Origin: Minisyncoccales bacterium
Lineage (GTDB): Bacteria > Patescibacteriota > Minisyncoccia > Minisyncoccales > JAGMDC01
Reading direction: 5' to 3'
NCBI GenBank assembly: GCA_049642725.1
Contig: JBARPC010000005.1
Span: 1 to 47,507, forward strand
Length of the DNA stretch: 47,507 bases
Made by a program: the position numbers and the translations under genes. Under the pieces are notes generated by a model. That model was not told the origin of the DNA. It did not search any database and saw only the letters and a list, made by a program, of their open reading frames with translations. Shown piece by piece: positions 7,960 to 29,895 of this stretch (within the stretch, counting starts at the first letter, position 1; each line of letters begins with the position of its first letter).

Positions 7960-7963
7960 ATCT

Positions 7964-10717: not shown

Positions 10718-10741
10718 GTGCTCGGTTCGAGCGACCAAGAC
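10718..10741 (+). repeat. 24-bp direct repeat gtgctcggttcgagcgaccRagac, left copy
   Basis: Identical except for one base to 28918-28941. Contains hairpin ctcggt/accRag. Confidence 0.7.
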
Positions 10742-10755
10742 GCATCAGAATAAGT

Positions 10756-10786
10756 AAAAACATGAAGTATAATGCTTCATGTTTTT
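10756..10786. terminator. Bidirectional rho-independent terminator hairpin
   Basis: aaaaa-catgaag-tataatg-cttcatg-ttttt, with U-runs on both strands. It sits just 3' of minus-strand gene 10808..11716. Confidence 0.55.
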
Positions 10787-10807
10787 GTGTCTGTCGTTAT
10801 TGAAATT

Positions 10808-11716
10808 TTAATTGCAACAACCTGGCATGAAATCACGTTTTGGTGATGGCCATCTTTTCTCTACTCCTTCAATCGTTATTTTTAAACTTTCTTCCTTGGT
10901 AATACTATATTCTTTCCTTAATTTTTCCTTACAGCTATCTGTTAATTCTGATACATTATCTGCATATTTATATATATCAGCTGTTATGAATTCAGAGCAG
11001 TATTCGCATCCAGGAAAATAGCGCTTCATCGCTTCTAAATCAGCCCAGTCTTCACACTTAGCAATTTCTGTAAATATTTCTTTTCGTATTGCTTCGGTTA
11101 ATCCAAAGAGAGTTTCTTCTTTTACTTCTTTGATAGATTCAAGAGTTTTTTCGTCAATGTGGTAGATAATCTTATAAGAGTCTCTGATATTATCCTTTGC
11201 TATTTCTTGAGTTATACCGTCCCAGTTTCCATTAGGACACCATTCAGTATAGCCAATAGTAGGATTACCTCCTTTTAAGTTTTCTTCGCTCTCCCAAGAT
11301 TGAACTACAATTTCATCTATATCTGGATTTTCTGTAGATTTCTCTTTTACTACTTGAGCTAATGTAGATTTTAATTCCTCCAAAGTGATATCAGAGGACA
11401 CTACAATTTGATATTTCATTCTGAAATTGAGAGGCAAATCTTCTAATTCCTGAATAGAATAATCTGATAGTTTTCTCACTCCCAATGCCTTAACGCTTAT
11501 ATCTTCTTCATTGGCTATTTCATAATCTCTTACCTTGTTTTCTTTAATATAGTTTTCGAAAGAAAATTTCTGTTCAGAAATTTGGGGTTGTTCTTGGGCT
11601 TTTTTCTTTTCTTCACCGCTTGGAGCAATGATAATTATTACAAAAATAACAATTAACCAGAACCACCACTTTTTCCAGATTGGTTTTTTAGGTTTTATTT
11701 CAGTTTCGTTTGTCAT
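10808..11716 (-). CDS. Membrane-anchored hypothetical protein
   Basis: 302-aa ORF with N-terminal TM helix WWFWLIVIFVIIIIA and an acidic extracytoplasmic domain ending in CC. Confidence 0.5.
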   Translation of the reverse strand: MTNETEIKPKKPIWKKWWFWLIVIFVIIIIAPSGEEKKKAQEQPQISEQKFSFENYIKENKVRDYEIANEEDISVKALGVRKLSDYSIQELEDLPLNFRMKYQIVVSSDITLEELKSTLAQVVKEKSTENPDIDEIVVQSWESEENLKGGNPTIGYTEWCPNGNWDGITQEIAKDNIRDSYKIIYHIDEKTLESIKEVKEETLFGLTEAIRKEIFTEIAKCEDWADLEAMKRYFPGCEYCSEFITADIYKYADNVSELTDSCKEKLRKEYSITKEESLKITIEGVEKRWPSPKRDFMPGCCN

Positions 11717-11831
11717 TTTTTTATCTGAGATTATTTTAAGTCTTTCTCCGACCTTTTATTTTCGGCGGCATAACACAAAGCTCGCCGCCAGCGATGGTTT
11801 TCACCACCCATACCCCTTTCGGGATATGACC

Positions 11832-11882
11832 CGGTAAGAGTGCTCTGACGACGAGCTTGATGTCTCTTACCGGGTTTTTTGT
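11832..11882 (+). terminator. Strong plus-strand intrinsic terminator (10-bp stem ccggtaagag/ctcttaccgg followed by tttttt)
   Basis: Seen directly. A GC hairpin ggcggc...gccgcc precedes it at 11763-11790. There is no plus-strand CDS upstream. Confidence 0.5.
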
Positions 11883-11949
11883 GCCATGCCTTATAGAATT
11901 ATAAGGGTTAGGCAATATTAAATTGTTATTTCATTATACCTGATTTTCT

Positions 11950-13269
11950 TTATTTTTCCAGCAGAATTTCTCTATCCTTAAGAACCAATTTACTTTTCAA
12001 ACAGGAAAGCAGTTCTCGTTTCTCAAAAATATTTCCTTCTTTTAAGAGATATTTTGCATAATTCCGTATATCAACATCAATATTCGTATTTTCTTTTTTG
12101 TCACCAAGAACCCCAATTCTGAATTTATTGAATCTCATAATTTCCTGCTCGATTTTGGATTTTATTCCGAGTTCGTCTAAATCAACTTTGTCTATAAGTT
12201 TTATTAGTTCATTAATGAGATTTGGTTCATTGATGGCAGGGTTTTTACAATCAATATTTCTCGCTTTCGTGCAGAAATAATAGACATGGCGGTTTACACC
12301 GCCATTTTTGAGCTTTTTAAATTTCTCGTCAGCTGTAACGCCTGAACCGCAATATCCGCATTTAATCAACTTTGTGAATGCAAATTCCTTGCTTTCGGTT
12401 TTCGGAATAAAGTTTTCGTTAAGCGTCATTTGGACTTGATCAAACAACTCTTTGCTTATAATCGGTGTATGCTTGCCAATATACCAATTACTGCTTCCTA
12501 CTGGATATTCAAACTCTCCGTAATAGAAGGAGTTTCGAAGGATAAGATAAATATTTCCAAGTACCAGCAGTTTATCATTTTTGGTTTTGAATCCAATTTC
12601 TATCAACCAGCGATATACTTTGCGTCCACTCCATTGTTCATTTGCCACTCTTTCAAACATTTGTTTTATAATCGGTGCTCGTTTCGGATCTATCCTAACT
12701 TGGCATTTCTTATCAATGTGTTTTTCGTTGAGATAGCCAGTAGGAGCTACTCCTGGTCTAAATCCCATTTCACATCGCGTCCGCAGACCGCGTTTCACAT
12801 TCACAGCCTTATTATCGTTTTCAAGTTTAGCCTGCGAACCAAGTATCATAAGTAGAAATTTTTCATTCGGATTATCGGTGAATTTTTGCCCGAACGTCTT
12901 TATCTCTAAGAGAAGTTTTTGATCCATAAGATCTACGACCGAACCCAGGTCTCCGGCGTTTCTGCTTAGTCTATCCGGAGCCCATGTTAGGATGCCGTTG
13001 TATTTTCCTTCGCGGACTTCGGTTAACATTTGATTGAATATTTTTCTTTGGCCAACTTCCTTTGAGGAATATGATTCGCGTTTGATGTCTACTACTTTAA
13101 GATTGTCTCGTTCAGCTAAAGATAGCATTTCTTTTACCTGTGATTCTATAGAAAGAGCTTGCTTGTCTTCGGCTTCGCTTGATTTTCTGGCATATAAACA
13201 GTACTTAATGTTTGTTGTAAGAATAGGGAACTGGTTATTACTCAATTGTGCTGTTGTCGCTTGTTCCAT
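11950..13269 (-). CDS. Large serine recombinase (phage-type serine integrase)
   Basis: N-terminal resolvase domain (YARKSS...ALSIESQ, catalytic Ser region), recombinase domain (GVAPTGYL...) and a C-terminal zinc ribbon (CGYCGSG...YYFC). Confidence 0.8.
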   Translation of the reverse strand: MEQATTAQLSNNQFPILTTNIKYCLYARKSSEAEDKQALSIESQVKEMLSLAERDNLKVVDIKRESYSSKEVGQRKIFNQMLTEVREGKYNGILTWAPDRLSRNAGDLGSVVDLMDQKLLLEIKTFGQKFTDNPNEKFLLMILGSQAKLENDNKAVNVKRGLRTRCEMGFRPGVAPTGYLNEKHIDKKCQVRIDPKRAPIIKQMFERVANEQWSGRKVYRWLIEIGFKTKNDKLLVLGNIYLILRNSFYYGEFEYPVGSSNWYIGKHTPIISKELFDQVQMTLNENFIPKTESKEFAFTKLIKCGYCGSGVTADEKFKKLKNGGVNRHVYYFCTKARNIDCKNPAINEPNLINELIKLIDKVDLDELGIKSKIEQEIMRFNKFRIGVLGDKKENTNIDVDIRNYAKYLLKEGNIFEKRELLSCLKSKLVLKDREILLEK

Positions 13270-13391
13270 AGGTTTATTTTTTTAATTTCTTATTATTCGA
13301 CCTTTGGAACAAGGATGCCGCAACCCTCCTAGGGAGTCCAGACCCCATCAGTTGGTAAATTGTTTATAAGCTAAAATAGATTTAAACTTAT

Positions 13392-14918
13392 CTATGGAAA
13401 AGGTCTCCATCCTTCGTCATCTTCTCCATCATCTAATAGCCCCATTCTTCTTCGCGGACCAATATTAATCCATTCAAAATGTGGCACAGGTTGATTGCAG
13501 TATACGATAAATTGGTTGGCAACGAGCGAAAAGGCATCCGCAAGATCGTTGTATTTTTCTACACCGAAGCCAATAAGTTGAAGAATAAGTTCTTCGGCAC
13601 CTTTTTTGGGAAACAGAATGAGTCCTTCTTTTATTGCTGCTGTAGTAAGCACAAGTCGTTCATGTTTGTCTCCGTGGGGAGGAACACCCTGAACCTGAAT
13701 TCCTAAACTATGACAATGCTGAATAATAGATTCCTGATAGGCGACTTTTTCAACAAAAATTGTTGGATTAGAGTATACTTCCGTATTTGTCACTAGAAGT
13801 TTAATCTGCGTTACCTGTTCCGGGAATCCAACAGTATCATTAAAAGGAAAAGGCATGACGTAAGCATACTTTTTATCTTTCACTTGATAAATTCTCATAG
13901 CAACAATAGCCGTGCGGTGTGCACTGTTTTTTTCTGATATCGCTAAATCCACGCCAATATAAGTCTGAACGAAATTTTTATCATCCGGAAGCTCTTTATC
14001 GTAATCGTAATAATGAATATATTCGGGTTTAACAACGCGTCCCGTTTCAGAAACAACACGAAGAAGGTATTCTCTTAACCAGGTGATTTCGGTAATGCCT
14101 TTTGTTTTTTCTTCCTCGATAGCTTCCTGGTTGGGAAATTTCCCGGGCCAGGCACAATTACCCTGTTCGTCCAGAAGGGGATATTCCCGATAAATACCGT
14201 GCATTTTATTTTCCTTGATATTTTTTTGCAGTCGTTTAATAAGAGAATCTTCATGAAGCAGGCTTCCAACAATTATAAGTCTGGTATATCTGCTTCCGGC
14301 AGGGATTACATCACCGAGAAGCCAGTTGTATACCTTGTCTCTCCCTTCTTTTGTTCTTACGGAATCCATGTCTTCCAGATCGTCGCAAATGATTAATTGC
14401 GGACGGTACTGCTTATGACGTATACCACGTATGCTCTGTTCGGTAGAGGCAACGGTAATTTTGGCATCATAATGAGTTAGATAAAGTGATACCAAATTCC
14501 AACCATTGTGTTCTTCCTTAAAAGGTCCTAAATCATTTTTTAGCAAATCGTTTGTCTCAAGCTCGTACTTGATTTGTTGGAGCAGTGTTTGAGCTTTCTG
14601 CTGTGTTTTACTCAGAATCAGAACGTGTTTTATTTTCTGCTCTCCGAGGATAGCCCAGAGCGGGAAAGAAAGCGAAAGTAGGGTTGATTTTCCACAGCCA
14701 CGAAAACCGAGTGTCACTGCACTGCGGATGTTCGTATCCTGCGTTATATGGAATATTTCTTCGTGGAAAGGAGCGATGGGGAATTCGGTATAATGTGGAA
14801 AGTAGAAATAGAAGAAGAACTTATGACTCCTTTTTACGATACTTAATCTGACTCTTTTCTCTTTCAACATCACATCAAAAATTTCCTCCACACTCATTTG
14901 TTTATTTTTCTTTTTCAT
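13392..14918 (-). CDS. Phage terminase large subunit
   Basis: Walker A GFRGCGKST, Walker B LIICDDLED, and an RNaseH-like nuclease region IGVDLAISEKNSAHRTAIVAM. Confidence 0.7.
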   Translation of the reverse strand: MKKKNKQMSVEEIFDVMLKEKRVRLSIVKRSHKFFFYFYFPHYTEFPIAPFHEEIFHITQDTNIRSAVTLGFRGCGKSTLLSLSFPLWAILGEQKIKHVLILSKTQQKAQTLLQQIKYELETNDLLKNDLGPFKEEHNGWNLVSLYLTHYDAKITVASTEQSIRGIRHKQYRPQLIICDDLEDMDSVRTKEGRDKVYNWLLGDVIPAGSRYTRLIIVGSLLHEDSLIKRLQKNIKENKMHGIYREYPLLDEQGNCAWPGKFPNQEAIEEEKTKGITEITWLREYLLRVVSETGRVVKPEYIHYYDYDKELPDDKNFVQTYIGVDLAISEKNSAHRTAIVAMRIYQVKDKKYAYVMPFPFNDTVGFPEQVTQIKLLVTNTEVYSNPTIFVEKVAYQESIIQHCHSLGIQVQGVPPHGDKHERLVLTTAAIKEGLILFPKKGAEELILQLIGFGVEKYNDLADAFSLVANQFIVYCNQPVPHFEWINIGPRRRMGLLDDGEDDEGWRPFP

Positions 14919-15298
14919 GGTTTTTTGTCGAACGAAGCAAGCCGGAGAGCTGTTTTTACTAAAGCCATCTGTTCCGGCGTTAGTTCTTCGTCCGAGTGTG
15001 TTAAGCGACCGCTAATTTCAACTTTATTTCCATATTTTGGGTGATGATGACGGAGCCATAATTGAAGAGCCTGAAAGTTCCGGTCGCGAATCAGGGAAAT
15101 TAGCTGAGATTCGCTCATATCTGTTATAAATGCTTCGCCTTCGGTAATAGCCGCATCAGCCTCCCTGGCAAATTTCTTACTTTCTCGCCAGCGGTAATAT
15201 GTGGTTCGTCCAACGCCAACCTTTTTGCAGGCAACCTGCACAATTGGCATTTCCTTTAGCACTACAATCATTGAATCTTTTATTTTATCTTTTTTCAT
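14915..15298 (-). CDS. Terminase small-subunit-like HTH protein
   Basis: HTH VACKKVGVGRTTYYRWRE. Sits directly upstream of and overlaps terL. Confidence 0.45.
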   Translation of the reverse strand: MKKDKIKDSMIVVLKEMPIVQVACKKVGVGRTTYYRWRESKKFAREADAAITEGEAFITDMSESQLISLIRDRNFQALQLWLRHHHPKYGNKVEISGRLTHSDEELTPEQMALVKTALRLASFDKKP

Positions 15299-16629
15299 AA
15301 CTTTTTAGCATTGCGGCCGGTTAATTTTTCAATTCGGCATCTTATAACCGCCGTATAAATGGGGGATTTCTCCATTACAAAGCATCGACGTTCCATGGTT
15401 AAAGCCGCGGCTGCGGTGCTTCCACTACCACCGAAGGGATCAATGATTAGGTCACCCCTTTTAGTTAAGACCTTTAGGTAAGGAATAAGTATGGGTAGCG
15501 GTTTGGTCCCAAAAATTATACCCTGTCCTGAATGTTTGGCGTCGTCTACTTTGAACTGAATAAAATCGGATGGACAGATCTTTTTCCCTTTTTTATAGCC
15601 TTCCCAATGAGGTTTTCCACTAATAGCGTATAGAGCCGTTTCGTATTCATTCTGTAGTAATTCATTTTCCGATTCGCAACTCAGTTCTTTATTTCCCGAT
15701 TTACCAACCATGGCTATATCGTACTTGCTAAAGAATTTATACTTGGCGGAAAATCCCTGCGTCCTATTCGGGGTATTCCAGACAATCATATTCTTTACTT
15801 TCCAGTGTTTCTCCATCTCTCCCCATACGGTTCGAATGTTTTTCCAATTTTCATATACGATGATTGAAAAATCTGGCTTGGCTATCTTTGAAATATTTGC
15901 CATCCATTTTTGGGTGAAATCCGGTGGCAGGAAATCCGTTTCCAAATACCGCCTGTCTCTTTTATAGCCGAAACCCTCAATAGCTTTTCCGTGCTTTTTC
16001 TTGCCCTGCAAATAATTCAGGATGTATGGGGGGTCGGTTAGGCACATGTCGGCTTTTTCTTTACCCATCAACTTGAACACGTCATTTTCGATAGTGGAGT
16101 CTCCGCACATTATCTTTACAAACGGCCCAACCTTATAAACATCACCCTTCTTTATATCTATCTTTTGAATTCCAAGTTTCCGTAATTCTTTTTGGAGGTC
16201 AAAGATTTCTGGGTTTTCGTCAATTCCGAAAACTTCATCCAATTCCTCTGAATTAAATCCAATACCACTTAAGAAATCCTCATCAAAGTTAGCCAACAAA
16301 TTCCAGTCCCAGTCGCCAGTATTCTTATTTAAGCGGATGTTCAATTCCTTCTCGCGTTCAATGTCCGAAATGTTTACGTAAACCACGGGAATTTCCTTAA
16401 ACTTTAACTCTTTTGCTGCCCGTAACCTCATGTGCCCGCCAATCACAATATTCTTCCTACTTGGAGCAATATTTGCAATTACTGGATCAACCATTTGGAA
16501 TCGTTTGATGCTCTCTTTTAATTGTTCCATTGATTCATTGCTGATTTTTCGGGGGTTATATTCCGATGGCCGGAGAGAATCTATGGGAACATACACTATA
16601 TTAAGTTTTGGTTTTGTTATTTTAGTCAT
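15295..16629 (-). CDS. ParB-like nuclease domain fused to DNA methyltransferase (N6-A/N4-C, beta class)
   Basis: N-terminal ParB motifs (LRPSEYNPR, GGHMRLRAAKEL), a DPPY catalytic motif (CLTDPPY) and C-terminal FDPFGGSGSTAAAA (motif I). Confidence 0.75.
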   Translation of the reverse strand: MTKITKPKLNIVYVPIDSLRPSEYNPRKISNESMEQLKESIKRFQMVDPVIANIAPSRKNIVIGGHMRLRAAKELKFKEIPVVYVNISDIEREKELNIRLNKNTGDWDWNLLANFDEDFLSGIGFNSEELDEVFGIDENPEIFDLQKELRKLGIQKIDIKKGDVYKVGPFVKIMCGDSTIENDVFKLMGKEKADMCLTDPPYILNYLQGKKKHGKAIEGFGYKRDRRYLETDFLPPDFTQKWMANISKIAKPDFSIIVYENWKNIRTVWGEMEKHWKVKNMIVWNTPNRTQGFSAKYKFFSKYDIAMVGKSGNKELSCESENELLQNEYETALYAISGKPHWEGYKKGKKICPSDFIQFKVDDAKHSGQGIIFGTKPLPILIPYLKVLTKRGDLIIDPFGGSGSTAAAALTMERRCFVMEKSPIYTAVIRCRIEKLTGRNAKKL

Positions 16630-16887
16630 GCTTTTAATTAGATTATTTATTCTTTATTTACCTCGACTACTGGTAAATATTCACCGCAAGAAACCATCGA
16701 CCAAAATTCTTTCCAGAGAAACAAAACGCCCGCCTAAAAGGAGAGCTCAAAAACAATATTTGTTTAAGCTATCTTTTTAAGCGGGCACGACCGAGGCGAA
16801 CCTCTTCGATATTTTTATTTATTGAATATCTTCTATCGGAGATGACTCCGAAATCCGTGGTACCTACGAAATGTCTCTAAAAAGAAC

Positions 16888-17382
16888 TTAACTTCTTACC
16901 GCTACTTTTATTATAAGAGTCCCATCTTCTATGTCAAGTGCTACCAATTCTCCATATCCTTCGGTGGCTTTATATCGTTCAAATCCTACGCGGCGATTAC
17001 GGGCCCGGACTGCTTCTTTTAAATTTTTATCAAACAGAATTTTAACCATTCTGTCTTTCGGAATATAAATCTTAAATTTTTTTCCAGAATTAATTGCATT
17101 TTTATATATTTCAGTATTTTCTTTATTTAAAGGGAATTTGCTTTCTATCATCAAACCTGAATCAGGGGAGAAGTTCATGTTTACATTTGATATCTGTGTA
17201 GATATCCTGGCACCTTGATGCATTTTTGAGTTGTATGGCAGTTCGGGATACCATTCTTTAGGTTTCCTAAAAACAGTCCCATGAAATTGGATATAATTAA
17301 CTACCATGTCTGCATATTCCGGTTTTTCAACAATCTCTATACTATCTTTTTTAATTTTTCCTTTACTTTTCTTTTTTAGCAT
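16888..17382 (-). CDS. Hypothetical protein (phage-associated)
   Basis: 164-aa ORF divergent from the excisionase-like gene. Confidence 0.4.
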   Translation of the reverse strand: MLKKKSKGKIKKDSIEIVEKPEYADMVVNYIQFHGTVFRKPKEWYPELPYNSKMHQGARISTQISNVNMNFSPDSGLMIESKFPLNKENTEIYKNAINSGKKFKIYIPKDRMVKILFDKNLKEAVRARNRRVGFERYKATEGYGELVALDIEDGTLIIKVAVRS

Positions 17383-17424
17383 TGTAAATTAATAGTAGGT
17401 TATATTTTAATTATATTCTGATTT

Positions 17425-17604
17425 ATGAATAAAAACAAATTACCAGAAATTCTAACAATGAAACAGGCTTGCGAGTTCTTGAACGTTCACCCCAACACCT
17501 TAAGAAATTGGGATAATAAAGGCGCTCTTAAAGCTATTCGATTTGGTAGTCGTAGAGATAGGCGATATAAAAAATCGGATATTTTAAAATTGATTAAAAA
17601 ATAA
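17425..17604 (+). CDS. Excisionase/AlpA-like HTH DNA-binding protein (59 aa)
   Basis: LTMKQACEFLNVHPNTLRNWDNKGALKAIRFGSRRDRRYKKSDI matches an HTH_17/MerR-like excisionase motif. Not in the ORF track because it is shorter than 60 aa. Confidence 0.55.
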   Translation: MNKNKLPEILTMKQACEFLNVHPNTLRNWDNKGALKAIRFGSRRDRRYKKSDILKLIKK

Positions 17605-17651
17605 TTTATATGTTTTTAAACGATAACAAAAATTGATTAATTTTAAAAAAT

Positions 17652-20729: not shown

Positions 20730-20746
20730 TTAAATAAAACCGACAG

Positions 20747-20808: not shown

Positions 20809-20872
20809 GAGTGTTTCAAGATAGATTATCATAGAGAAAAAACCAATTAAATTGAATTAATACAATAAAACG

Positions 20873-21433
20873 ATGTCAATATTAGATAACTTTATTAAAA
20901 TAGTTGATGAGATTTATGGAGTTTATTTAGATAGCACGGCTGGATTTGATACTGTGAGAGAAAGTTGTATAAAGCTTCAAAAAAATTTAGCCGTTGAATG
21001 CTCATTATCGGAAGAAGAGATAGATAAGCGTTCGTTCACTTTTGGAAAGGGAAATCCTAACAAAAAAGGAGCTTATCCGCTTCATGTTTGTTCGCAGGGG
21101 ATATTCAAAAAGAGAAATAAAAAGAATGGAAGAAATTATAGAATAATTGCGAGACTTTGTTTGGTTATGATTTATCAATACTGGGAAGATTATTATAGGC
21201 CAAGAATAGCTGAAGAGAACAAGGTTTTAAAAGAGAATATAAAATGGGACATAATTGGAGATTTAAGATTTTTTCGTGAGTCGATTATACATCACAAAGG
21301 AATTGCAATTCCTAAGATAGAAAATTGTAAAATATTGAAATGGTTTAAGGAGGGAGAAATAATAAACATTAATAATCGTCAATTTGAAGAAATTATTAGG
21401 AGTATTAAAACTTCAAAATATGAAATATGCTAA
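20873..21433 (+). CDS. Hypothetical protein
   Basis: 186-aa ORF with no recognisable domain. Confidence 0.4.
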   Translation: MSILDNFIKIVDEIYGVYLDSTAGFDTVRESCIKLQKNLAVECSLSEEEIDKRSFTFGKGNPNKKGAYPLHVCSQGIFKKRNKKNGRNYRIIARLCLVMIYQYWEDYYRPRIAEENKVLKENIKWDIIGDLRFFRESIIHHKGIAIPKIENCKILKWFKEGEIININNRQFEEIIRSIKTSKYEIC

Positions 21434-21481
21434 ATAAGAGGAAATTAAAATAGTTGAAGATTTTAACAGCGGTATTTAAAT

Positions 21482-22324
21482 ATGAAAATCGTATTTCCAA
21501 ACAAAAAGCAGTTAGACGAACAATACAAAAAGGAACATCCTGCTGATTTTATGACGCATTTGAATTATGTCTCTTGTTTAAACGATTTGTCTAAAAGTTT
21601 AGTAGTAAAATGCAATATTAATTTAAAAAATAGATTGCCAGAAACAAAAAATTTGTCTAAAAAAATCAGGTTGATAAATTTGGTAAAAAGAAATTTAGAT
21701 GAAGAATACAAATTAATTTTAAGAGATCCTGGGTTCGCTGAAATATGTGTTCCTTGGATTGCCGTTAAATCATACTATCTCTTTTTTAATTTATTTTTAA
21801 CATTAGAGTATTTAATCACTGGTGAGGAGCGTTCCTTCTTCAATTCCCATCACGGTGTTTTAGAAAATCTAAAAAGACATATAAGAAATAAAGAACTTGA
21901 GTTTAATAAGACGCAATTCAATAAAATTTATAAAGGTGGAAGTATATTAAAATGGAAAGCTAAGCCACACGCCAACATTAAAATTACTAGTCCAAATACA
22001 CAAGAAAGATTTTTCCAAATTATTAAAATATTAATGAGGTATTACATTGAAGACTTCAAACGCAAAGAAAAACTAAAAACCTTAAATTGTAAAAAGGGAA
22101 AGAGTTTTTTAAATAAATCTAATATAAATATCTGTGAATTTTTTTACTGGTATAGGATAAAATCTAATTATAGAGATTTAGAATTTTTGGATAAGGATAT
22201 AAGCGATGATTGGTTCAGTGATTTTTATAGAAATTATTTTGAATTAACATCTAACTTTTATAAAACTATTCAAAATTTGATAAACAACTTATCAAAGATT
22301 AGATTAAATAAAATGGTTTTATAA
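21482..22324 (+). CDS. Hypothetical protein
   Basis: 280-aa ORF. Confidence 0.4.
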   Translation: MKIVFPNKKQLDEQYKKEHPADFMTHLNYVSCLNDLSKSLVVKCNINLKNRLPETKNLSKKIRLINLVKRNLDEEYKLILRDPGFAEICVPWIAVKSYYLFFNLFLTLEYLITGEERSFFNSHHGVLENLKRHIRNKELEFNKTQFNKIYKGGSILKWKAKPHANIKITSPNTQERFFQIIKILMRYYIEDFKRKEKLKTLNCKKGKSFLNKSNINICEFFYWYRIKSNYRDLEFLDKDISDDWFSDFYRNYFELTSNFYKTIQNLINNLSKIRLNKMVL

Positions 22325-22383
22325 ACTTTATGAATTAACGGAAGAGGAGATTAAAATTCTTGAAGATTTTAGTAAAAATTAAT
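22325..22383 (+). pseudogene. Methylase C-terminal stub (K)LYELTEEEIKILEDFSKN*
   Basis: It has no start codon and is out of frame with the preceding gene. Confidence 0.45.
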
Positions 22384-22385
22384 CT

Positions 22386-23075
22386 ATGGAATATATTATT
22401 GAGTTTGATACAGGTAAAAATATCCGTTTTACAGGATTTCATTTTTTTAAAAATATAAGCGAATTTTGTAATCTCTGTTACTTTATTTTCAAAGGAGAAA
22501 AGTCTTTTATATTATTAGATATTAATTATGGTTACGATATTGACGACAGATTTCTTTTAAAGCAAATAGTTTCCGCTGAAGTAGACGTTCTGGCTAATAT
22601 AATTTCTTGGGAGTATGAAGTTGCTATGAGGGAATCAAGGATATATTTAAATGATTTTAAAAACATTAAATCTTTTCCTTCTAAGGAGCCAGAAGACGCT
22701 AAATTCATTTATAAGGGATTATTCACGAGTAAACTTACAGAGGAAAATTTGTCTATCCTTTCTGGTTTTAGACAAATGAAGAACGAAGTAAGTCGTCCTC
22801 TCAAGTATTTAATGTGTTATCGTTTGCTTGAAGTATTTGCTAAATATCATGAAAATAATGTAGATAAATTTATAATTAATAATAGAATTAAGACTAAATT
22901 TATGAAAGACCCTAGAAATTCTAAAAATACAAAAACTTTAATTACTCATTTTAGAAATAAAATTCATCCGACAAAAACAACATATATTTTCCCATCAAGT
23001 TTGCTAAGTGCTCATTTGGAAGAGATTGAACGTGTAGTTTCTCTAATAATAGGAGACATAATAAAAATTAAATAA
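22386..23075 (+). CDS. Hypothetical protein
   Basis: 229-aa ORF. Confidence 0.4.
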   Translation: MEYIIEFDTGKNIRFTGFHFFKNISEFCNLCYFIFKGEKSFILLDINYGYDIDDRFLLKQIVSAEVDVLANIISWEYEVAMRESRIYLNDFKNIKSFPSKEPEDAKFIYKGLFTSKLTEENLSILSGFRQMKNEVSRPLKYLMCYRLLEVFAKYHENNVDKFIINNRIKTKFMKDPRNSKNTKTLITHFRNKIHPTKTTYIFPSSLLSAHLEEIERVVSLIIGDIIKIK

Positions 23076-23082
23076 AAAATTA

Positions 23083-23772
23083 ATGAAAAAACAATTAAAA
23101 GATAAAAATTGTATTTATTGCGGGAAGCCAGCAGAGGATGAAGATCATATACCATCTAGGAACCTTTACAAGGGGATTATTAAAAATATAAATCCCATTA
23201 AGGTGCCAAGTTGTAGAAATTGTAATAATTCTTTTTCAAAAGATGAAGTATATTTTAGAGATTTAATTAGTAGTTTAAGATATGAACAATCAATAACGGC
23301 TACTTGTTTGTTTGATAGCGTTATTAAAAGATCAATAATAAAAAAACCCGGTTTAGCTAAAAAGATGTTCAATCAGATGTCCTTGGTGAATTTCTATTCG
23401 AAAGGTGGTATTTATTTGGGGAGAAAAACAGCAATAAAAATTGATCACAAAAGAGTATTTAATGTTTTAGATAAATATATAAAAGGATTATTTTACCATC
23501 ACTTCGGTCAAGCTATACTAAATGATTGGATAATTAGTCATCATTGGCTTACGCCTCAGTTCGAGAAAAGAGTGATCGATATTCTCAAAAAATTAAAATG
23601 GAAAAGAGTTCAAAAAAATGTTTTTGTTTACGGATATAATTTTGTACCGAATACCTACCAGTCGATTTGGTGTTTAGTTTTTTTCGGACAACCTATATTT
23701 TATTCATTAGTATTAGATAATGAAACCGCAAACAAAAACCGTAATCAATTTAATAATCAAAATAAAAAATAG
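23083..23772 (+). CDS. HNH-endonuclease-like protein
   Basis: CIYCGK...EDEDHIPSRN...CRNCNNSF matches the CxxC...DH...N...CxxCN signature. Confidence 0.45.
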   Translation: MKKQLKDKNCIYCGKPAEDEDHIPSRNLYKGIIKNINPIKVPSCRNCNNSFSKDEVYFRDLISSLRYEQSITATCLFDSVIKRSIIKKPGLAKKMFNQMSLVNFYSKGGIYLGRKTAIKIDHKRVFNVLDKYIKGLFYHHFGQAILNDWIISHHWLTPQFEKRVIDILKKLKWKRVQKNVFVYGYNFVPNTYQSIWCLVFFGQPIFYSLVLDNETANKNRNQFNNQNKK

Positions 23773-23797
23773 AATATAAAAAATAATTTTTCAGGGT

Positions 23798-24265
23798 TTG
23801 ACAATGGAAGATAATTATTGGAATTATAATAGATTAATAGGGGCAACAGAGGAAGAGATAGAGGCGCTTTTGAAATATGAGATTTGGATGTTTTACGAAA
23901 CTTGTAACCAGCTTAATTCGTGTCAAGCAACGCGATTTGAAAGAAATTTGTTATTAGAGTCACTGTCTACTCATACTAGAATATTAATAGATTTTTTTTA
24001 TGGGAAGAAAAAATATCAGAACGATTTAATAGCTCAAGATTTACTGTCAGATAATATAAATTGGCAAAAGGAGAGGCCATCAGTAACCGAAGTACTTAAG
24101 GTGGCAAAAAATAAAGCAGATAAGCAATTAGCCCATTTGGGTCGTTGGAGAGTAAAAATTGAGAGAGATAATAAAAAGGTATGGAATTGGAATGATATTA
24201 AAAAAGATATGGAAATAATAATTGAGAAATTTGGAAGATTAAGAAATAATCAAAATTTAGTTTAA
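23798..24265 (+). CDS. Hypothetical protein
   Basis: 155-aa ORF. Confidence 0.4.
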   Translation: MTMEDNYWNYNRLIGATEEEIEALLKYEIWMFYETCNQLNSCQATRFERNLLLESLSTHTRILIDFFYGKKKYQNDLIAQDLLSDNINWQKERPSVTEVLKVAKNKADKQLAHLGRWRVKIERDNKKVWNWNDIKKDMEIIIEKFGRLRNNQNLV

Positions 24266-24307
24266 ATTTGAAGAAAGAAAAAAAGTTAAAGAATTCATTT
24301 TTAGATT

Positions 24308-25114
24308 ATGCAAATTAAATTACCAGATATAAATTTATTGATGGAAAAAATTTTACCAGTAAAAGCTTCTTTTATTGGTGATTATATCCATCCGGCCTTG
24401 GGGCAAACTGCGACACAAACCATAGAACAATGGAGATTGAATTATTTAAAAGAGCTAAAACTAAATAATTCTTTTGATAATATTGAGAAATTTAAGGTTT
24501 TTATTACTAGTTTATTACTAAGGGCTAATAGGGGAGAAGTTGGAGGAAGATTATATAATACTTTCAATAATAGGGTTAGAAAATTTAGCGATTTAAATAA
24601 AGGAGATATTAGAAAGGTTTTGAGAGATTCAGGTTATCGTTTTCAGAATCAAGGAACAGAAACCGTATTAAACTCCAAAGAGTTATTATTTAACAAATAT
24701 CAAGGAAAGTGGGATAAGTATTTTAAAGAAGCCAAGGAAGATTATAGGAATAATTTTCCAAACGATGATTTTTTGAAAATAAAGGGAGTTAGTTTCAAAG
24801 TAAGAGATTTAGCTTTAAGCTGTTTCCTGAAAGAATATTCTGCTAATGATTTTCATGTAGTTGATGTTTTAGCAAGAACAGGTTTAATTTTATATGGATA
24901 TGCTGATTTAAATTTTGGCACTAATCCTAACAACAAGAAAAATTATTTATTTTTAAGGAATTTAATAATTAAAATTTCTAAACAAACACGCTATTCGCCA
25001 GGAGAAATTGATAGAATTTTTTGGCATTTTGGCCGAGCAATTTGTAGAAGTAAACCATTATGTGAGGAATGCCCCGTTAAAAACATTTGTTTGACTCATA
25101 AAAATAAAAAGTAA
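24308..25114 (+). CDS. HhH-GPD superfamily DNA-glycosylase-like protein with C-terminal Fe-S-type Cys cluster
   Basis: IKGVSFKVRDLALSCFL (HhH-like), FHVVDVLARTGLI (cf. the EndoIII VDTHVFRV.NRLG motif) and C-x5-C-x2-C-x5-C (CRSKPLCEECPVKNIC). Confidence 0.4.
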   Translation: MQIKLPDINLLMEKILPVKASFIGDYIHPALGQTATQTIEQWRLNYLKELKLNNSFDNIEKFKVFITSLLLRANRGEVGGRLYNTFNNRVRKFSDLNKGDIRKVLRDSGYRFQNQGTETVLNSKELLFNKYQGKWDKYFKEAKEDYRNNFPNDDFLKIKGVSFKVRDLALSCFLKEYSANDFHVVDVLARTGLILYGYADLNFGTNPNNKKNYLFLRNLIIKISKQTRYSPGEIDRIFWHFGRAICRSKPLCEECPVKNICLTHKNKK

Positions 25115-25133
25115 AAATTAATATAAGACAATT

Positions 25134-25538
25134 ATGAAACAATATCTTATAGATGCATCAGTTCTACACGGTTGGTCTAATACTAAAGATAAACACCATT
25201 CAGTATGTAAGAAATTTTTCCAAGATCGCTTAGAAGATGAATTGTTTTTTCCTATTCATTGCCTTTTTGAAGTAAAAGCTTCCAGGGAAAGAAGATTAAA
25301 GGGAGGTGATTTTTCTGGACTACCCGGCAAATTTGTTTTAAGAAATAAGAAATTCATTAACGTTGACCGTAAATTTTTTGATCATTGTCAGCAAAAAGAG
25401 CTTTTCGATGCATTTAAAAAACTAAAAGGTTCTGATTTAATTTATGCATGTATGGCCAAAATAGGCGGTTTCATTCTTGTTACCTGCGATAACGATTTCG
25501 ACGCTTATAGTAGAAAAATAAATTTATTGAAATTATGA
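25134..25538 (+). CDS. PIN-domain protein (VapC-like nuclease)
   Basis: YLIDASVL, FEVKAS and GFILVTCDNDFD match the conserved acidic PIN residues. Confidence 0.55.
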   Translation: MKQYLIDASVLHGWSNTKDKHHSVCKKFFQDRLEDELFFPIHCLFEVKASRERRLKGGDFSGLPGKFVLRNKKFINVDRKFFDHCQQKELFDAFKKLKGSDLIYACMAKIGGFILVTCDNDFDAYSRKINLLKL

Positions 25539-25599
25539 AAGAAAAAATTAAGTAAGAAAGAATTAATAAAAATAATTAAAGAATTTATATTTTATAAAC

Positions 25600-26925
25600 A
25601 TGCTTTGGCTATTTTCAAAAAATAGATCAGTTGATTCATCAAAAATTGTATTAACTGAAGAATTCCGTTCTGTATTGTCTTTATTTGAAAATTCTAATAA
25701 TAATTTGTTTTTAACTGGCAATGCAGGAACAGGAAAAACTACTCTTCTTAAACAATTTCGAGAACAAACGAATAAGAAAGTAGTTTTGTTAGCTCCAACG
25801 GGCATTGCCGCTCTTAATGTTGGGGGGAAAACAATACATTCTTTTTTTCATTTTCCGCCCCGCATTATAACATCTCAAGTCATCAATGAATTATGTTCTA
25901 ATAACCGGATTTACAAAATCGTTGACACTATTATTATCGATGAAGTATCTATGGTTCGAGCTGACGTTTTTGAAGGTATAGATATTTTTATGAGACGGCA
26001 TGGACGAGATAGTAATCGACCATTTGGTGGTGCCCAGATTATTTTAGTTGGCGATCCCTATCAGTTGCCACCTGTTGTGACTTCCGCAGAAGAACCGGTA
26101 ATTTCGAAGATTTACAAAACACCATATTTTTTTAGTGCAAAAGCATATAACGGTGGTAAATTTCGATTATTAGAGTTAACGGAGATTCATCGACAGCACG
26201 ATGCGAAGTTTATCGAGTTTCTAAATTTAATTCGTCACGGAAACGTAAACATGCGAACCCTTCAACCCATTAACAATCGCATCACTAAGGATTTTTATTC
26301 AGATTCTAAAAATCAAGGAGTTACCCTTACAACAACAAATAGGGTAGCAGATACCATCAATCAGACAGAATTATCAAAACTTTCTGGTCCAGAATATGAA
26401 TTTGAGGCCAATATTGAAGGTGAATTCCCTAAAGAAAAAGATGTAATTATTCCTCGCAATTTATCATTGCGTAAAGGTGCGCGCGTTATGGCCCTAAAGA
26501 ACACTGGAAAGTTTAATAACGGAGATATGGGGATTGTAACGAAATTGGATGGAAAAAATATTTCTATCAAATTAGGCTCAACTGGCGAAGAATTCGTCGT
26601 TTTACAAGACGAATGGGAGAATATTCGTTATGGTATTGACCCAGATTCAAATACTATTACGACAGAAGTTCTTGGAAAATTAAAACAATTTCCACTTCGT
26701 CTTGCTTGGGCAATTACTATTCACAAGAGCCAGGGAATGACTTTTGATCGTGTCAATATTGATTATACTCGATCTCCTTTTGTGGGAGGACAAACATACG
26801 TTGCTCTTAGTCGTTGTCGAACCTTAGAGGGCATTACTATCACAAAAGAACTTTACCCGAACGATGTATTCGTCGATGATCGAATAGTTAATTTTATGAA
26901 CGGCTCTCAGGATGCCAAAGTTTAG
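25600..26925 (+). CDS. Pif1/RecD-family SF1 DNA helicase
   Basis: Walker A GNAGTGKTTLL, LLAPTGIAALNVGG, IIDEVSMV, ILVGDPYQLPPV, and the C-terminal TIHKSQGMTFDRV...ALSRCR motif. Confidence 0.7.
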   Translation: MLWLFSKNRSVDSSKIVLTEEFRSVLSLFENSNNNLFLTGNAGTGKTTLLKQFREQTNKKVVLLAPTGIAALNVGGKTIHSFFHFPPRIITSQVINELCSNNRIYKIVDTIIIDEVSMVRADVFEGIDIFMRRHGRDSNRPFGGAQIILVGDPYQLPPVVTSAEEPVISKIYKTPYFFSAKAYNGGKFRLLELTEIHRQHDAKFIEFLNLIRHGNVNMRTLQPINNRITKDFYSDSKNQGVTLTTTNRVADTINQTELSKLSGPEYEFEANIEGEFPKEKDVIIPRNLSLRKGARVMALKNTGKFNNGDMGIVTKLDGKNISIKLGSTGEEFVVLQDEWENIRYGIDPDSNTITTEVLGKLKQFPLRLAWAITIHKSQGMTFDRVNIDYTRSPFVGGQTYVALSRCRTLEGITITKELYPNDVFVDDRIVNFMNGSQDAKV

Positions 26926-26950
26926 GCCGAAATTAAGATAATATTTAAAA

Positions 26951-27136
26951 ATGATTTCTAAGGAAAGTTTAGAAAAATTCAAGAAGATTTATAAAAAAAG
27001 ATTTGGCGAAGACATTTCCGATCAGGTTGCTTTAGAAAAGGCGACTAAATTATTGAATTTAGTGAAAGCCGTTTATCGGCCAATGACTAGAGAAGAATAT
27101 GATAAAGTCCAAAAACGTAGAGAAAAAACAAAATAA
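26951..27136 (+). CDS. Small hypothetical protein
   Basis: 61-aa ORF. Confidence 0.3.
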   Translation: MISKESLEKFKKIYKKRFGEDISDQVALEKATKLLNLVKAVYRPMTREEYDKVQKRREKTK

Positions 27137-27281
27137 TAAGGAGGGATTAGAGGAAGCGAAAAATAATCTGTTGGGATTTTTTGATTTACTTCTCAAAATC
27201 GATAGAAGAATAAATCCTCAAAGATATAAATTAAAAAGGAAGAAGATTTAATTAAATTAATTTTTTTGGGAAAATAGTAAT

Positions 27282-28598
27282 ATGGAGAAATTATCAAAAA
27301 AACTTATTGTTTATCTCGACCAGAATTTTATAAGCGAAATGGCAAAGGTTGAAACAAATAAAAAAGTAAGTTCTCAATTTAAAGATATATATGAATTACT
27401 TCATGAGGGTTTTATTGATGAAAAAATTGTAGTTCCATCTTCTTGGTTTCATGAGATTGAAACAAGCTTGTCTACTATTCTTAAAAAGAAAATTATGGAA
27501 TATCAAGGATATTTAGGTCAAATAGATATGAATTTCCCTACAGATATACGAAGATTTCAGTTAGTAAAAGCAGTTAAAGAATTTCTTGGAGAAAAAGAGG
27601 CTGAACCTACAAGTTACGGTTTTGTTTTTCGTAATAATCCAGATCAGAGAACAAGAATGTTTGATATCAAAATAGATACTCAACTAGAACGTTTTAATTA
27701 TAGAAGTGAACGAGTATCAACCGCAAAAGATTTAGATAAATTAAGAAAAAGTATTGAGGAAAATAAAATTAACTATAAAGAACAATTACAAAAAGAGCTA
27801 AATGCCCAAATAGATTTTTTAAAGCAGCAAGAGAATTACACCTTTCGTTGGTTATTCAAAAATAATCCAGAAAAAGTAGATATGTTTTTAAAATCTAATT
27901 ATTTTAAAGAAATGCCAACAGTAAGTATTTATTCGCAGATGTGGTCAAAGCTACTTACTAGCTATAAAAATAGACAAATAAAGAGTAGCGACATGACCGA
28001 TATTGATATTATATCTACCTACCTTCCATATATAGAAGTATTAGCAACAGATTTATTTATGGCAAATTTAGTTAAGGAATTAGAGCTTGATAAGATATAT
28101 CAAACAACTATATTTTCCTCAAAAAATGAGAGTCTTAAAGATTTTAAAATCTATCTTAAAAATTATCTAATTAATACCAAAGCTATAAATATTCCAAAAT
28201 CTTCTATTTTTGTTTTATCAGATGACATTATTAAAGAACATTCATTTGAGTTATTCCATGATTTGGGCATGATGTCTGGAAATATATCGCATAGTAAAGA
28301 ATGGGTAGATATTTATGGTTTTGATGATGGTAATATGCCCGAATATCAACTAAAAAAGGGACCGAAACGTCCCTGGCCATTTTATGGACTTCAGGATGTA
28401 CACATAATCAAAATTAAACCAAAAATTCCTTTGTTAGAAATAATAAAAATCTGCAAAGAAAAATGTCGTTCTGAAAAGTTTATTCTCCTTAATTCATATA
28501 GAAAATTACCAAGTAATTTCGTAGAAACTTTAATTAAATACTGTGATTCTAAAAAAGATAGAATTTTGAACTACAAAATTTATAGTAGAAAAGTGTAA
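27282..28598 (+). CDS. Hypothetical protein
   Basis: 438-aa ORF with no recognisable domain. Confidence 0.45.
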   Translation: MEKLSKKLIVYLDQNFISEMAKVETNKKVSSQFKDIYELLHEGFIDEKIVVPSSWFHEIETSLSTILKKKIMEYQGYLGQIDMNFPTDIRRFQLVKAVKEFLGEKEAEPTSYGFVFRNNPDQRTRMFDIKIDTQLERFNYRSERVSTAKDLDKLRKSIEENKINYKEQLQKELNAQIDFLKQQENYTFRWLFKNNPEKVDMFLKSNYFKEMPTVSIYSQMWSKLLTSYKNRQIKSSDMTDIDIISTYLPYIEVLATDLFMANLVKELELDKIYQTTIFSSKNESLKDFKIYLKNYLINTKAINIPKSSIFVLSDDIIKEHSFELFHDLGMMSGNISHSKEWVDIYGFDDGNMPEYQLKKGPKRPWPFYGLQDVHIIKIKPKIPLLEIIKICKEKCRSEKFILLNSYRKLPSNFVETLIKYCDSKKDRILNYKIYSRKV

Positions 28599-28602
28599 AA
28601 TG

Positions 28603-28857
28603 AGACAATAGAATATATCCTTAAGTAGTGTCTCACTCTCATTTCTCGAACAGAACACCTAAACTGAGACACAGGGGTGAGACATTCCCGAAAGCTTCAA
28701 AACGGGACACTCAACTGTTCCATTGGAACACCCCCTTTTCGTGTTCCGTTTGTTCCGTTTTAGCTTCAAAATGCCCGACCGAGACGGGTCAATGGAACAC
28801 GCCGAAAATAGCCTGAATTACCCTTAAAATCTCGGTTCTGGACCGAGGTTGTCTGCC
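28603..28857 (+). ncRNA. Structured repeat element with tRNA-like 3' end (candidate tRNA-like RNA or MITE)
   Basis: 5' agacaat (28603-28609) can pair with 3' gttgtct (28847-28853), followed by g+CCA. T-arm-like ctcgg-ttctgga-ccgag. An internal palindrome gttccaTtggaac and a gttccgttt x2 direct repeat are present. A partial homologue lies at 46698-46876. Confidence 0.4.
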
Positions 28858-28886
28858 ATCACATGCTAAGTCAAGTGACTGAGACG
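28858..28886 (+). repeat. 29-nt trailer tcacatgctaagtcaagtgactgagacgc, copy 2
   Basis: Same motif as 4263-4291 and again placed immediately after a ...tgcca end. Confidence 0.7.
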
Positions 28887-28917
28887 CCTTAATTCGAGTC
28901 ACAAGGGGGAATAGGAT

Positions 28918-28941
28918 GGTGCTCGGTTCGAGCGACCGAGA
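28918..28941 (+). repeat. 24-bp direct repeat gtgctcggttcgagcgaccgagac, right copy
   Basis: Matches 10718-10741. It is followed by a T-run (ggtttattttt), so it may also act as a terminator. Confidence 0.7.

Positions 28942-29861: not shown

Positions 29862-29895
<34 letters not shown>

Follow-up and report, generated by a model that had tools for sequence, protein, structure and literature searches.

Serine integrases normally target open reading frames (ORFs) through core sequences of 3–12 bp, and tRNA targets are a hallmark of tyrosine integrases (PMC9303363). Here we describe a stretch of DNA, the whole 47,507-bp contig of a metagenome-assembled genome (MAG) of the Minisyncoccales (Patescibacteria, or candidate phyla radiation (CPR)), hereafter the window, in which the gene for a large serine recombinase (LSR) lies within a tandem array of units that starts at a tRNA-Trp gene. 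The closest described biology is that of the Prochlorococcus tycheposons, tRNA-anchored islands in which successive integrations push older elements outwards and partial tRNAs lie between the units; they carry cargo and defence genes, helicase or replication genes and terS, with an LSR in 27 of 937 and, in most, tyrosine recombinases and core repeats of approximately 40 nt (bioRxiv 10.1101/2020.12.28.424599). The array in the window is likewise anchored at a tRNA, with partial tRNA-like copies between its units, and carries terS, a helicase and defence cargo. It differs from the tycheposons in its host phylum, in its composite junctions (written P-GC-P' below) with a P' arm that is not tRNA-like, and in the presence of TerL, a ParB-methylase and a LOOT RNA.

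Other systems offer partial parallels. In SCCmec and the related staphylococcal and enterococcal cassettes (CcrAB/CcrC), an LSR inserts at a conserved gene 3' end, that of rlmH, and the repeats are 15–18 bp long; composites of these cassettes form tandem arrays with a short repeat around each unit, and units lacking a recombinase are moved in trans. By analogy, the array described here resembles such composites in having apparently LSR-driven units with the same short repeat, some of them without a recombinase, and differs in that its targets are tRNAs, its host belongs to another phylum and the recombinases are not close relatives. The LSR of mycobacteriophage phiRv1 has its site inside the dispersed multi-copy repeat REP13E12, with several usable sites per genome, and the likeness here is an LSR site within a dispersed repeat that is present many times. 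REP13E12 is species-specific and unconnected with tRNA genes, and we know of no description of tandem accretion at it. With phage-type LSRs (phiC31, Bxb1, TP901-1, A118) the system shares the Resolvase, Recombinase and zinc-ribbon domains, the catalytic Ser and DRLSR motif, a putative attP (~55 bp) whose imperfectly inverted arms flank a central dinucleotide, and an Xis-like HTH_17 ORF. Unlike in those phages, the target is not an ORF but the extreme 3' end of tRNAs from at least 11 anticodon families, approximately 27 nt of the P' arm are conserved family-wide and kept at every junction, the units stand in tandem, and capsid and tail genes are lacking. Integrons provide an analogy only: a fixed anchor, a cassette array, a conserved structured end site and single-ORF cassettes without a recombinase (in loci L016 and L039, below). 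Here, in contrast, there is no IntI, there are no single-stranded attC hairpins and each unit has its own terminator. An integron proper was rejected for want of an IntI-type tyrosine recombinase; no tyrosine recombinase of any kind was found among the Pfam-scanned ORFs of the window.

On balance, we consider it probable that several units were inserted serially behind tRNA-Trp by an LSR family that targets tRNA 3' ends, giving an array of at least three blocks in the window. For comparison we assembled relatives of the window's LSR, namely 11 loci in viral contigs and, of at least 491 relatives in metagenomes, the best 80 (60–86% identity) with their flanks, so that 91 loci were compared (referred to by number, as L039).

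The chromosomal anchor is a tRNA-Trp(CCA) gene (4189–4262, + strand; ARAGORN and Rfam), which would form the B arm of the first junction, J0, with the putative crossover GC at 4259–4260 corresponding to discriminator G73 and C74. Directly after it comes the P' arm of J0 (4261–4291, +; CATCATATGCTAAGTCAGGTGACTGAGACGC), copy 1 of a repeat that we call DR-A: a 35-nt stretch, CTGCCATCAYATGCTAAGTCARGTGACTGAGACGC, found at 4257–4291 and again at 28853–28887 with 33 of 35 positions identical. With 0–3 mismatches the same arm adjoins the 3' end of a convergent tRNA in six relatives (L052, L072, L041, L039, L068, L024). Other LSR loci at tRNA-Trp are L045, L051, L080 and L111, and the first two share the window's left host genes. 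The arm is followed by the cargo of a first unit, gamma (4292–10675, +; ORFs and Pfam), which has no integrase and encodes membrane and zinc-ribbon proteins, a conserved 664-aa CPR protein (7964–9958), a restriction-enzyme C-terminal remnant and an 83-aa ORF. Homologues of its 450-aa and 664-aa genes precede a junction in L009 of the same kind as the next one in the window, J1. Elsewhere the 664-aa homologue sits in defence-rich contexts that are not collinear with the window (L035, L036).

J1 (10676–10747, +) is a P::P' composite. A tRNA-3'-like P arm of a type that we term class A (10676–10709) is followed by GC (10710–10711), the spacer AAGCTT, a 24-mer, m1 (10718–10741), and a final GCAT. 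It matches a class-A family profile with E=6e-18 and a junction profile with E=2e-4, and a P' profile built only from the tRNA trailers of other LSR loci matches it in register with E=3.7e-3. The far end of the LSR-bearing unit, delta, is marked by copy 1 of a second repeat, DR-C (28692–28856, +), in which a conserved region with GGAACA/TGTTCC boxes leads into a P arm made of the tRNA-3'-like CTCGGTTCTGGACCGAG and GTTGTCT, with GC at 28855–28856; the second copy lies at 46679–46874, and the two (~165–196 nt) are approximately 80% identical. The boxes recur over approximately 80 nt upstream of each P arm (28698–28776 and 46683–46762), including the palindrome TGTTCCATTGGAACA, and are candidate binding sites for a protein, perhaps a directionality factor or regulator, at the distal unit ends. 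DR-C copy 1 abuts DR-A copy 2, the P' arm of junction J2 (28857–28887, +; CATCACATGCTAAGTCAAGTGACTGAGACGC; P' profile E=3e-7). Immediately beyond lies J3 (28888–28945, +), a decayed junction between delta and the next unit, beta, with its breakpoint at approximately 28912. Here a partial-tRNA-like piece, TTAATTCGAGTCACAAGGGGGAAT, precedes a second 24-mer, m2 (28919–28942); AT stands where the other junctions have GC, the P' profile matches only partially (E=0.66), and the upstream half resembles the tRNA-fragment class of L005, L011, L017 and L021. A bidirectional terminator hairpin (28991–29018) follows. The cargo of beta (29146–46565) comprises an XRE-type helix-turn-helix (HTH) regulator (29146–29529, −) and a gas-vesicle gene cluster, again without an integrase, and the unit ends in DR-C copy 2 (46679–46874, +), the P arm of J4 (CTTGGTTCTAGACCGAG and GATGCCT, with GC at 46873–46874). 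The sequence after it is unrelated, and we infer that it represents B'.

J0, J1, J2 and J4 have a single dinucleotide in common, GC; one step to either side, the dinucleotides differ between junctions that should both derive from one exchange. The junctions share this GC with 2–4 flanking bases that match the target tRNA, and the ends of the P arms copy the local acceptor end, CTGC for Trp here, CAGC for Gln (L039) and GGGGCAC for Lys (L059), while arrays on discriminator-A tRNAs have AC at the crossover position. Read by eye, J2 contains an imperfect inverted repeat in which TCTCGGTTCTGGAC (28830–28843) pairs with the reverse complement of 28870–28884, TCTCAGTCACTTGAC, around a centre at 28857, no more than 1 nt from the GC. 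Likewise by eye, the 24-mer in reverse complement (GGTCGCTCGAACCGAG) forms a mirror image of the P arm (GGTTCTGGACCGAG) on the other side of the GC, at similar distances from it. Such mirrored arms would be the imperfect palindrome expected of a serine-integrase attP of approximately 50–55 bp. With a full tRNA at one end, tRNA-3'-like P arms at 10676–10709, 28830–28856, 28888–28911 and 46848–46874, and an integrase together with packaging, replication and cargo modules, the region has the sequence hallmarks of a tRNA-anchored tandem island.

The family-wide comparison revealed a consistent relationship with tRNA genes. A tRNA lies downstream of the LSR in 46 of the 80 metagenome loci, and the first one is convergent in 45 of these 46, at a distance of 76–9329 nt (median 1340). 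These first convergent tRNAs are for Gln (24), Arg (6), Trp (4), Asn, Lys and Ser (2 each), and Leu, Met, Glu, Gly and Phe (1 each). The conserved arm ATGCTAAGTCAGGTGACTGAGACGC(AT), with clade-specific variants, starts 7 nt past the discriminator of the convergent tRNA and is missing at other tRNAs of the same loci and at an unoccupied tRNA-Gln in L007. The P' arm appears to travel with the element and to be joined to whichever tRNA the element lands behind. On the LSR side, relatives have it either 40–90 nt or approximately 1.0–1.8 kb past the LSR gene; m1 stands on the strand opposite the LSR, with a bidirectional terminator right behind it, and its position 1.17 kb downstream of the LSR stop is typical of them. 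With a P-arm profile built from the two DR-C copies of the window and three L039 junctions, co-oriented distal P arms were found upstream of the LSR, 2.9–5.3 kb from the LSR-proximal P' arm, in L048, L059, L066, L072 and L078, and distal P arms are also present in L039, L049 and L075; together with the LSR-proximal P' arms, they give the units two defined ends. Unrelated sequence beyond a P arm often opens with a terminator, as one would expect behind a tRNA gene.

In our interpretation the 24-mer, GTGCTCGGTTCGAGCGACCGAGAC, is a variant of this P' arm with two extra bases relative to the consensus RTGCTAAGTCAGGTGACYGAGACGCAT, and in a multiple alignment a 2-nt insertion is the chief difference between the 24-mer type and the DR-A type. 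It starts exactly 7 nt past the discriminator of tRNA-Asn in L014 and of tRNA-Gln in L018 (8 nt past the tRNA end), and elsewhere 7 nt past a pseudo-discriminator, which in class-A units is the G of ...GGAG; the DR-A-type arm has this same register. Intermediate P' sequences exist (GTGCTAAGTCAAGTGACCGAGACGC in L040, GTGCTAAGTCGAGTGACCGAGCGGC in L087, GAGCGTAGTTCGAGCGCACGAGTCGCG in L100, L101, L107 and L111; overall in L040, L087–L089 and L100–L111). DR-A-type and 24-mer-like arms alternate in one array, behind P arms of the same kind, in L039, whose LSR is 84% identical to that of the window: tRNA-Gln::P' (DR-A type), a two-gene unit and P::P' (DR-A type) with terminator and LSR are followed by P::P' (DR-A type), P::P' (GTGCTCGGTATCGAGAAACCGAGACG), a one-ORF unit and P::P' (ATGCTCGGTATCGAGCGACCGAGACGCAT). 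The idea that the 24-mer is a dispersed terminator-associated motif unconnected to the integrase was dropped after the 80-locus comparison.

A scan of one genome per GTDB species (596 Gb) for the exact 21-nt core of the 24-mer, TGCTCGGTTCGAGCGACCNAG, returned 18 loci, 17 of them in Patescibacteria (at least 11 other MAGs) and one in Myxococcales; approximately one chance match is expected in a scan of 596 Gb, which accounts for the latter. The 17 sites belong to Parcubacteria, Nealsonbacteria, Liptonbacteria and Saccharibacteria, with four in one MAG and two in another. Each core site has the orientation of the upstream gene and lies 28–190 nt past it, and these genes include glyS, dnaX, mltG and a clp-like gene (identified by eye from ORF translations). 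An intrinsic terminator follows 5–15 nt after the motif, a layout seen at nearly all sites of the family. The core is part of a conserved unit of approximately 75 nt, in which GGTTCTAACATCGTCC is followed by a variable hairpin with GGAG at its end, by CAGGCTWG and by the 21-mer with NNGCAT. The P' profile, trained with the window and the genome-scan loci left out, matches all 17 sites in register (E 2e-4 to 0.7), an indirect link between these loci and the LSR. One such locus, L016 (MAG CR_Bin_053, contig NODE_22, 1467–6353), has seven P arms in 5 kb, each after a small ORF and before a terminator; the 24-mer P' arm is present at only one of the seven. In another (L006, 3100–3568), the 3' end of an IS30-family transposase, recognized by eye from its translation, adjoins the 24-mer in place of the P arm, which suggests that the junction is also a target of insertion sequences.

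We propose that each unit carries a P' arm at its LSR-proximal end and, at its distal end, a P arm that resembles a tRNA 3' end and mimics the acceptor end of the target in its last bases. The LSR would recombine attP (P-GC-P') with the 3' end of a tRNA gene, crossing over at the discriminator and C74. One half-site would be the T-arm and acceptor region of the tRNA; the other is probably under little constraint, given that nothing is shared by the sequences found behind different target tRNAs. The products would be tRNA-GC-P' and P-GC followed by the old downstream sequence. As tRNA-GC-P' keeps the tRNA half-site, it could be used again, such that new units enter beside the tRNA and older ones are pushed outwards. 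Integrase-less units, both those in the window (gamma and beta) and small ones elsewhere (L016, L039, L005, L014, L017), would depend on an LSR supplied in trans. In this scheme the repeats, their distribution across the family, the tRNA::P' relationship and the gene content are observed, and the action of the LSR on these sites, the crossover at GC, the order of insertion and movement in trans are inferred. Under this scheme we favour three units in the window, gamma (4261–10711), delta (10712–28856, with the LSR) and beta (~28913–46874), because of the position of m1, the layout of four relatives (L037, L039, L047 and L053) with a small integrase-less unit between the tRNA and a second P' arm adjoining the LSR, the absence of the genes of 4292–10675 from all 91 LSR loci, and the junction in L009. 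The most likely extent of the LSR-bearing unit is then 10712–28856, with the left 24-mer as its own P' arm. A delta circle would read ...GGACCGAGGTTGTCTGC directly followed by AAGCTTGTGCTCGGTTCGAGC at its junction, the chromosome after loss of delta ...TTCAACACGGTGGAGC followed by CATCACATGCTAAGTCAAG, and tRNA-Trp joined to m1 ...TTCTGTCCCTGC followed by AAGCTTGTGCTCGG.

Several observations count against serial insertion in this form. We know of no LSR that recombines attL-like sites, so the re-use of tRNA::P' as a target is an assumption. The scores of the P' profile at the 24-mer sites are modest, and no LSR homologue was found at the 17 genome-scan loci in the 8 kb of DNA taken per locus (within ~4 kb). 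The many short forms in L016, with a P arm and terminator and no P' arm, are explained only loosely. Neither an empty site nor a circular junction or excision product turned up, the exact-protein look-ups having returned only integrated-state contigs from one sample; a look-up of the window's HTH protein returned no record. Lastly, the closest relatives of the LSR (75–86% identity) have a DR-A-type P' arm beside the LSR and not the 24-mer type, and the LSR's own arm could be 4261–4291 rather than m1.

This last point is also the best argument for an alternative that we regard as unlikely but worth weighing, in which a single 24.6-kb element extends from tRNA-Trp (4260) to 28856 with DR-A copy 1 and DR-C copy 1 as its arms, 4292–10675 is cargo and the 24-mers are relics, internal or neighbouring, that delimit nothing active. 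Here the LSR lies 7.7 kb from the tRNA, within the range of up to 9.3 kb in relatives, and J2 would be a perfect attP of the same type as the DR-C copy 2/DR-A copy 2 pair of the next unit; the circle, comprising gamma and delta, would read ...GGTTGTCTGC followed by CATCATATGCTAAGTCAGG. J1, however, has the full architecture of P-GC-P' plus terminator at the place where relatives usually have their P' arm, and both the four-locus layout and the lack (0/91) of the cargo genes from LSR loci point the other way.

A reading that we consider improbable is that the ~75-nt unit is a tRNA-like 3' untranslated region or trailer RNA element, a signal for processing or stability, and that the copies in the window merely end two transcription units. 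Its consistent orientation, its place just before an intrinsic terminator and its occurrence behind housekeeping genes would all suit such an element, as would compensatory changes in the class-A hairpins (TCCG/CGGA, TCCAG/CTGGA, TCCC/GGGA) and the P-arm hairpins (CTCGG/CCGAG, CCTGG/CCGGG, CTTGG/CCGAG). Yet no tRNA, tmRNA or known RNA was found at the repeats, with no Rfam match over 10676–10747 or 28888–28945 even at E≤10, and RNAalifold gave no covariation in the 21-mer, in a set that is uninformative here as it was chosen by exact match. Furthermore, the unit is homologous and positionally equivalent to an arm found only at tRNAs adjoining LSR elements, and the sequence of that arm varies with the LSR clade. 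The unit may nevertheless have an RNA role besides its role in DNA.

The sequence-only reading of this DNA had started from the 24-mer, GTGCTCGGTTCGAGCGACCRAGAC, taking its two copies as candidate attL and attR cores that bracket an integrated element of approximately 18 kb. The repeat is genuine. There are exactly two copies in the window, both on the + strand, at 10718–10741 and 28919–28942 (the second lying one base to the right of where it had been placed), with no further copy at up to 3 mismatches; they are identical at 23 of 24 positions, the exception being position 20 (A in the left copy, G in the right), and their similarity extends leftwards to 42 nt at 81% identity (10700–10741 versus 28901–28942). 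Both regions are covered by independent Logan contigs (run SRR28062514) that are 100% identical to the window over 4976–23269 and 27040–29121, which excludes misassembly of this contig as the source of the arrangement. The genes named between the copies (serine integrase, terminase, ParB-methyltransferase, excisionase and type IIG restriction-modification) are as described.

What these repeats represent proved to be another matter, and insertion of one 18-kb element into a pre-existing 24-mer, with a shared attB/attP core duplicated as attL and attR, now looks very improbable. It draws on the reality of the repeat, the proximity of the LSR to the left copy, and the A/G mismatch, which agrees with a crossover 5' of position 20, the G on the right being the chromosomal consensus. 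On the other hand, the common cores of serine integrases usually measure 8–12 bp or less (PMC9303363). The right copy also lies past a complete P-GC-P' junction, J2, in a junction of its own without GC, and the two copies differ in the junction class of their flanks. Nor is the 24-mer specific to one element, given the conservation of its core at the 17 other, unrelated loci across phylum-level diversity, and related LSR elements lack it next to the LSR. It had no match in viral contigs, including the 11 viral LSR loci at up to 5 mismatches, and a 24-mer family profile matched 4 of the 80 metagenome LSR loci (L039, L040, L095, L096), none of them with an LSR-proximal arm of this type. Taken at face value, then, we found both scattered copies and relatives without the repeats, the two outcomes against which the sequence-only reading had staked itself. 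Its interpretation survives in part: the repeats do derive from attachment sites of a serine-integrase element, and they lie close to its ends. The left copy is very likely the integrase unit's own end, standing where this family usually has its end arm. The right copy, some 60–90 bp from where the LSR unit ends, lies beyond the true end and belongs to the decayed neighbouring junction approximately 60 bp past it. Rather than a common core, or attL and attR of a single event, we see in the two 24-mers half-sites of the same type (P') that are neighbours in a tandem array, an array defined better by the DR-A and DR-C pairs, which the earlier analysis had not listed. Chance or low-complexity repetition can be dismissed as extremely improbable, since none of 100 dinucleotide shuffles of the window contained any match to the 24-mer and the 17 exact 21-nt matches in Patescibacteria compare with approximately one expected.

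Turning to the gene content of delta, J1 is followed directly by a bidirectional intrinsic-terminator hairpin (10756–10786) and a gene for a 302-aa membrane protein (10808–11716, −) with weak PHROGs matches to superinfection-exclusion families, a piece of cargo that separates the P' arm from the LSR. At this place relatives have unrelated genes of approximately 1 kb and no homologue of the 302-aa gene. The LSR itself (11950–13269, −; 439 aa) matches the Pfam families Resolvase (PF00239, 8e-19), Recombinase (PF07508, 6e-15) and Zn_ribbon_recom (PF13408, 1e-8), and its translation has YARKSS and DRLSR motifs and a Cys-rich ribbon (CxxC...C). With a Ser catalytic domain, a recombinase domain and a zinc ribbon, the predicted protein is a canonical large serine recombinase. 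Upstream lie genes for TerL (13392–14918, −), a TerS-like protein (14915–15298, −) and a ParB-N6/N4 methyltransferase (15295–16629, −), which form a conserved four-gene module with the LSR. One or more of TerL, TerS and the ParB-methyltransferase matched beside the LSR in 9 of the 11 viral loci and approximately 25 of the 80 metagenome loci. The four-gene order recurs (L025, L029–L034, L037, L040, L069, L077, L085 and others), always without capsid genes, and a Type ISP restriction gene stands divergent to the module in six metagenome loci and the viral locus L031. The module suggests a satellite-like element that brings its own terminase. A peptide-pattern search for TerL loci in viral contigs returned nothing, which is a limit of that method.

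The remaining cargo of delta (16888–28598) begins with a 164-aa ORF and a small HTH_17 excisionase (Xis)-like ORF (17425–17604, +; 59 aa), a possible directionality factor, followed by a Type ISP/IIG restriction-modification enzyme (17652–20729, +), five ORFs with no assigned function, HhH-GPD-like (24308–25114) and PIN (25134–25538) ORFs, a PIF1-like helicase (25600–26925) and a 438-aa ORF (27282–28598). Among the ORFs at 10.8–23.1 kb there was no structural match in PHROGs (E<1e-3), with only TerS and TerL matching phage families, and Pfam, the sole search of the ORFs at 23.1–28.6 kb, gave no structural-protein match there. A prophage was rejected on this basis: no capsid, portal, tail or lysis genes were matched, and the module recurs without structural genes in relatives. 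C-terminal tail remnants of a restriction/methylase protein (...KMVYKLYxLTxEEIKIVEDF), one with in-frame stops, follow several unrelated ORFs (10077–10172, 20732–20815, 21436–21465, 22310–22375, 25558–25587 and 30967–30996) and resemble scars left where genes were repeatedly replaced at the 3' end of restriction-modification genes. A TGA within one such remnant raised the question of an alternative code (TGA=Gly); the real genes have no in-frame TGA, and code 11 holds.

Directly downstream of the LSR gene lies a LOOT RNA (Rfam RF03000; 11793–11914, −), scoring 98.6 bits against a gathering score of 46.4. In many relatives a LOOT RNA is found approximately 40–250 nt from the LSR gene, either divergent upstream or co-directional downstream (L019, L024–L027, L034, L037, L049, L064, L069, L077, L085, L095–L098, L112 and others). 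The curated Rfam model detected it in 5 of the 11 viral loci and confirmed it in all 11 metagenome loci tested, and a sequence profile matched 22 of the 80 metagenome loci. The main text of the paper that named LOOT gives no usable genomic context for it, and the neighbourhood of the LSR is the first context that we could trace for this orphan Rfam motif, known from metagenomes. From its position, the RNA could regulate or assist the recombinase. In L037, the locus of the closest relative, there is also a group I intron (RF00028, 69 bits; 8482–8756, −) approximately 1 kb downstream of the LSR.

The beta region holds a full gas-vesicle gene cluster in a CPR contig, within 29146–46874 and bounded by the same junction repeats, and for this reason it appears to be a mobile unit without an integrase of its own. 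It includes genes for a GvpN-like AAA protein (32307–33245), an Hsp20-like protein (33936–34544), a CDC48-like double AAA protein (34541–36697), GvpF/L (43538–44344), GvpA/J and GvpK (44304–44954) and a GvpA-like protein (44983–45291). Near its left edge, two tandem 39-nt repeats (29077–29115 and 29126–29164; 97% identical), each with an internal inverted repeat (CTGCC...GGCAG), lie over the 3' end of the HTH regulator gene, and one Logan contig ends exactly at them. To the left of the array, the last 67 nt of rpmG (ribosomal protein L33) occur three times at 81–96% identity (2238–2304, 2901–2967 and 3428–3494) and separate single-gene inserts encoding NTP_transf_6 (2311–2895), HIT (2972–3427) and DUF5674 (3508–3858) proteins. 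In the related hosts L045 and L051 only approximately 215 nt separate tRNA-Thr from tRNA-Trp. The rpmG region has the appearance of a second cassette-insertion site of another kind, where the target gene has its 3' end duplicated.

We regard the system as a variant of known tRNA-island and LSR biology, in which the new part is an LSR family with arrays of P-GC-P' junctions behind tRNAs. It is an abundant family, with at least 491 metagenomic relatives, found at the final bases of many different tRNA genes, an unusual place for serine integrases. Its arrays include integrase-less units, here a complete gas-vesicle operon, as well as a defence block. The conserved junction sequence can be used to map islands in fragmentary MAGs, and genome engineering could have a practical interest in natural LSR/att pairs whose target rule (discriminator plus C74, with a 27-nt P' arm) is simple and predictable. 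The CPR/Patescibacteria have very small genomes, and their routes of gene gain are poorly understood. Speculatively, and with considerable doubt, these bacteria may possess an integron-like platform for gene capture that is built on a serine integrase, with the tRNA 3' end as a reusable dock, units moved in trans and the LOOT RNA as cofactor or regulator. Were this the case, the P::P' and P::terminator sites, of which there are hundreds behind ordinary genes, would be the traces of a main route by which these tiny genomes gain genes, and the captured units would vary in size between one ORF and an 18-kb block of gas-vesicle or defence genes.

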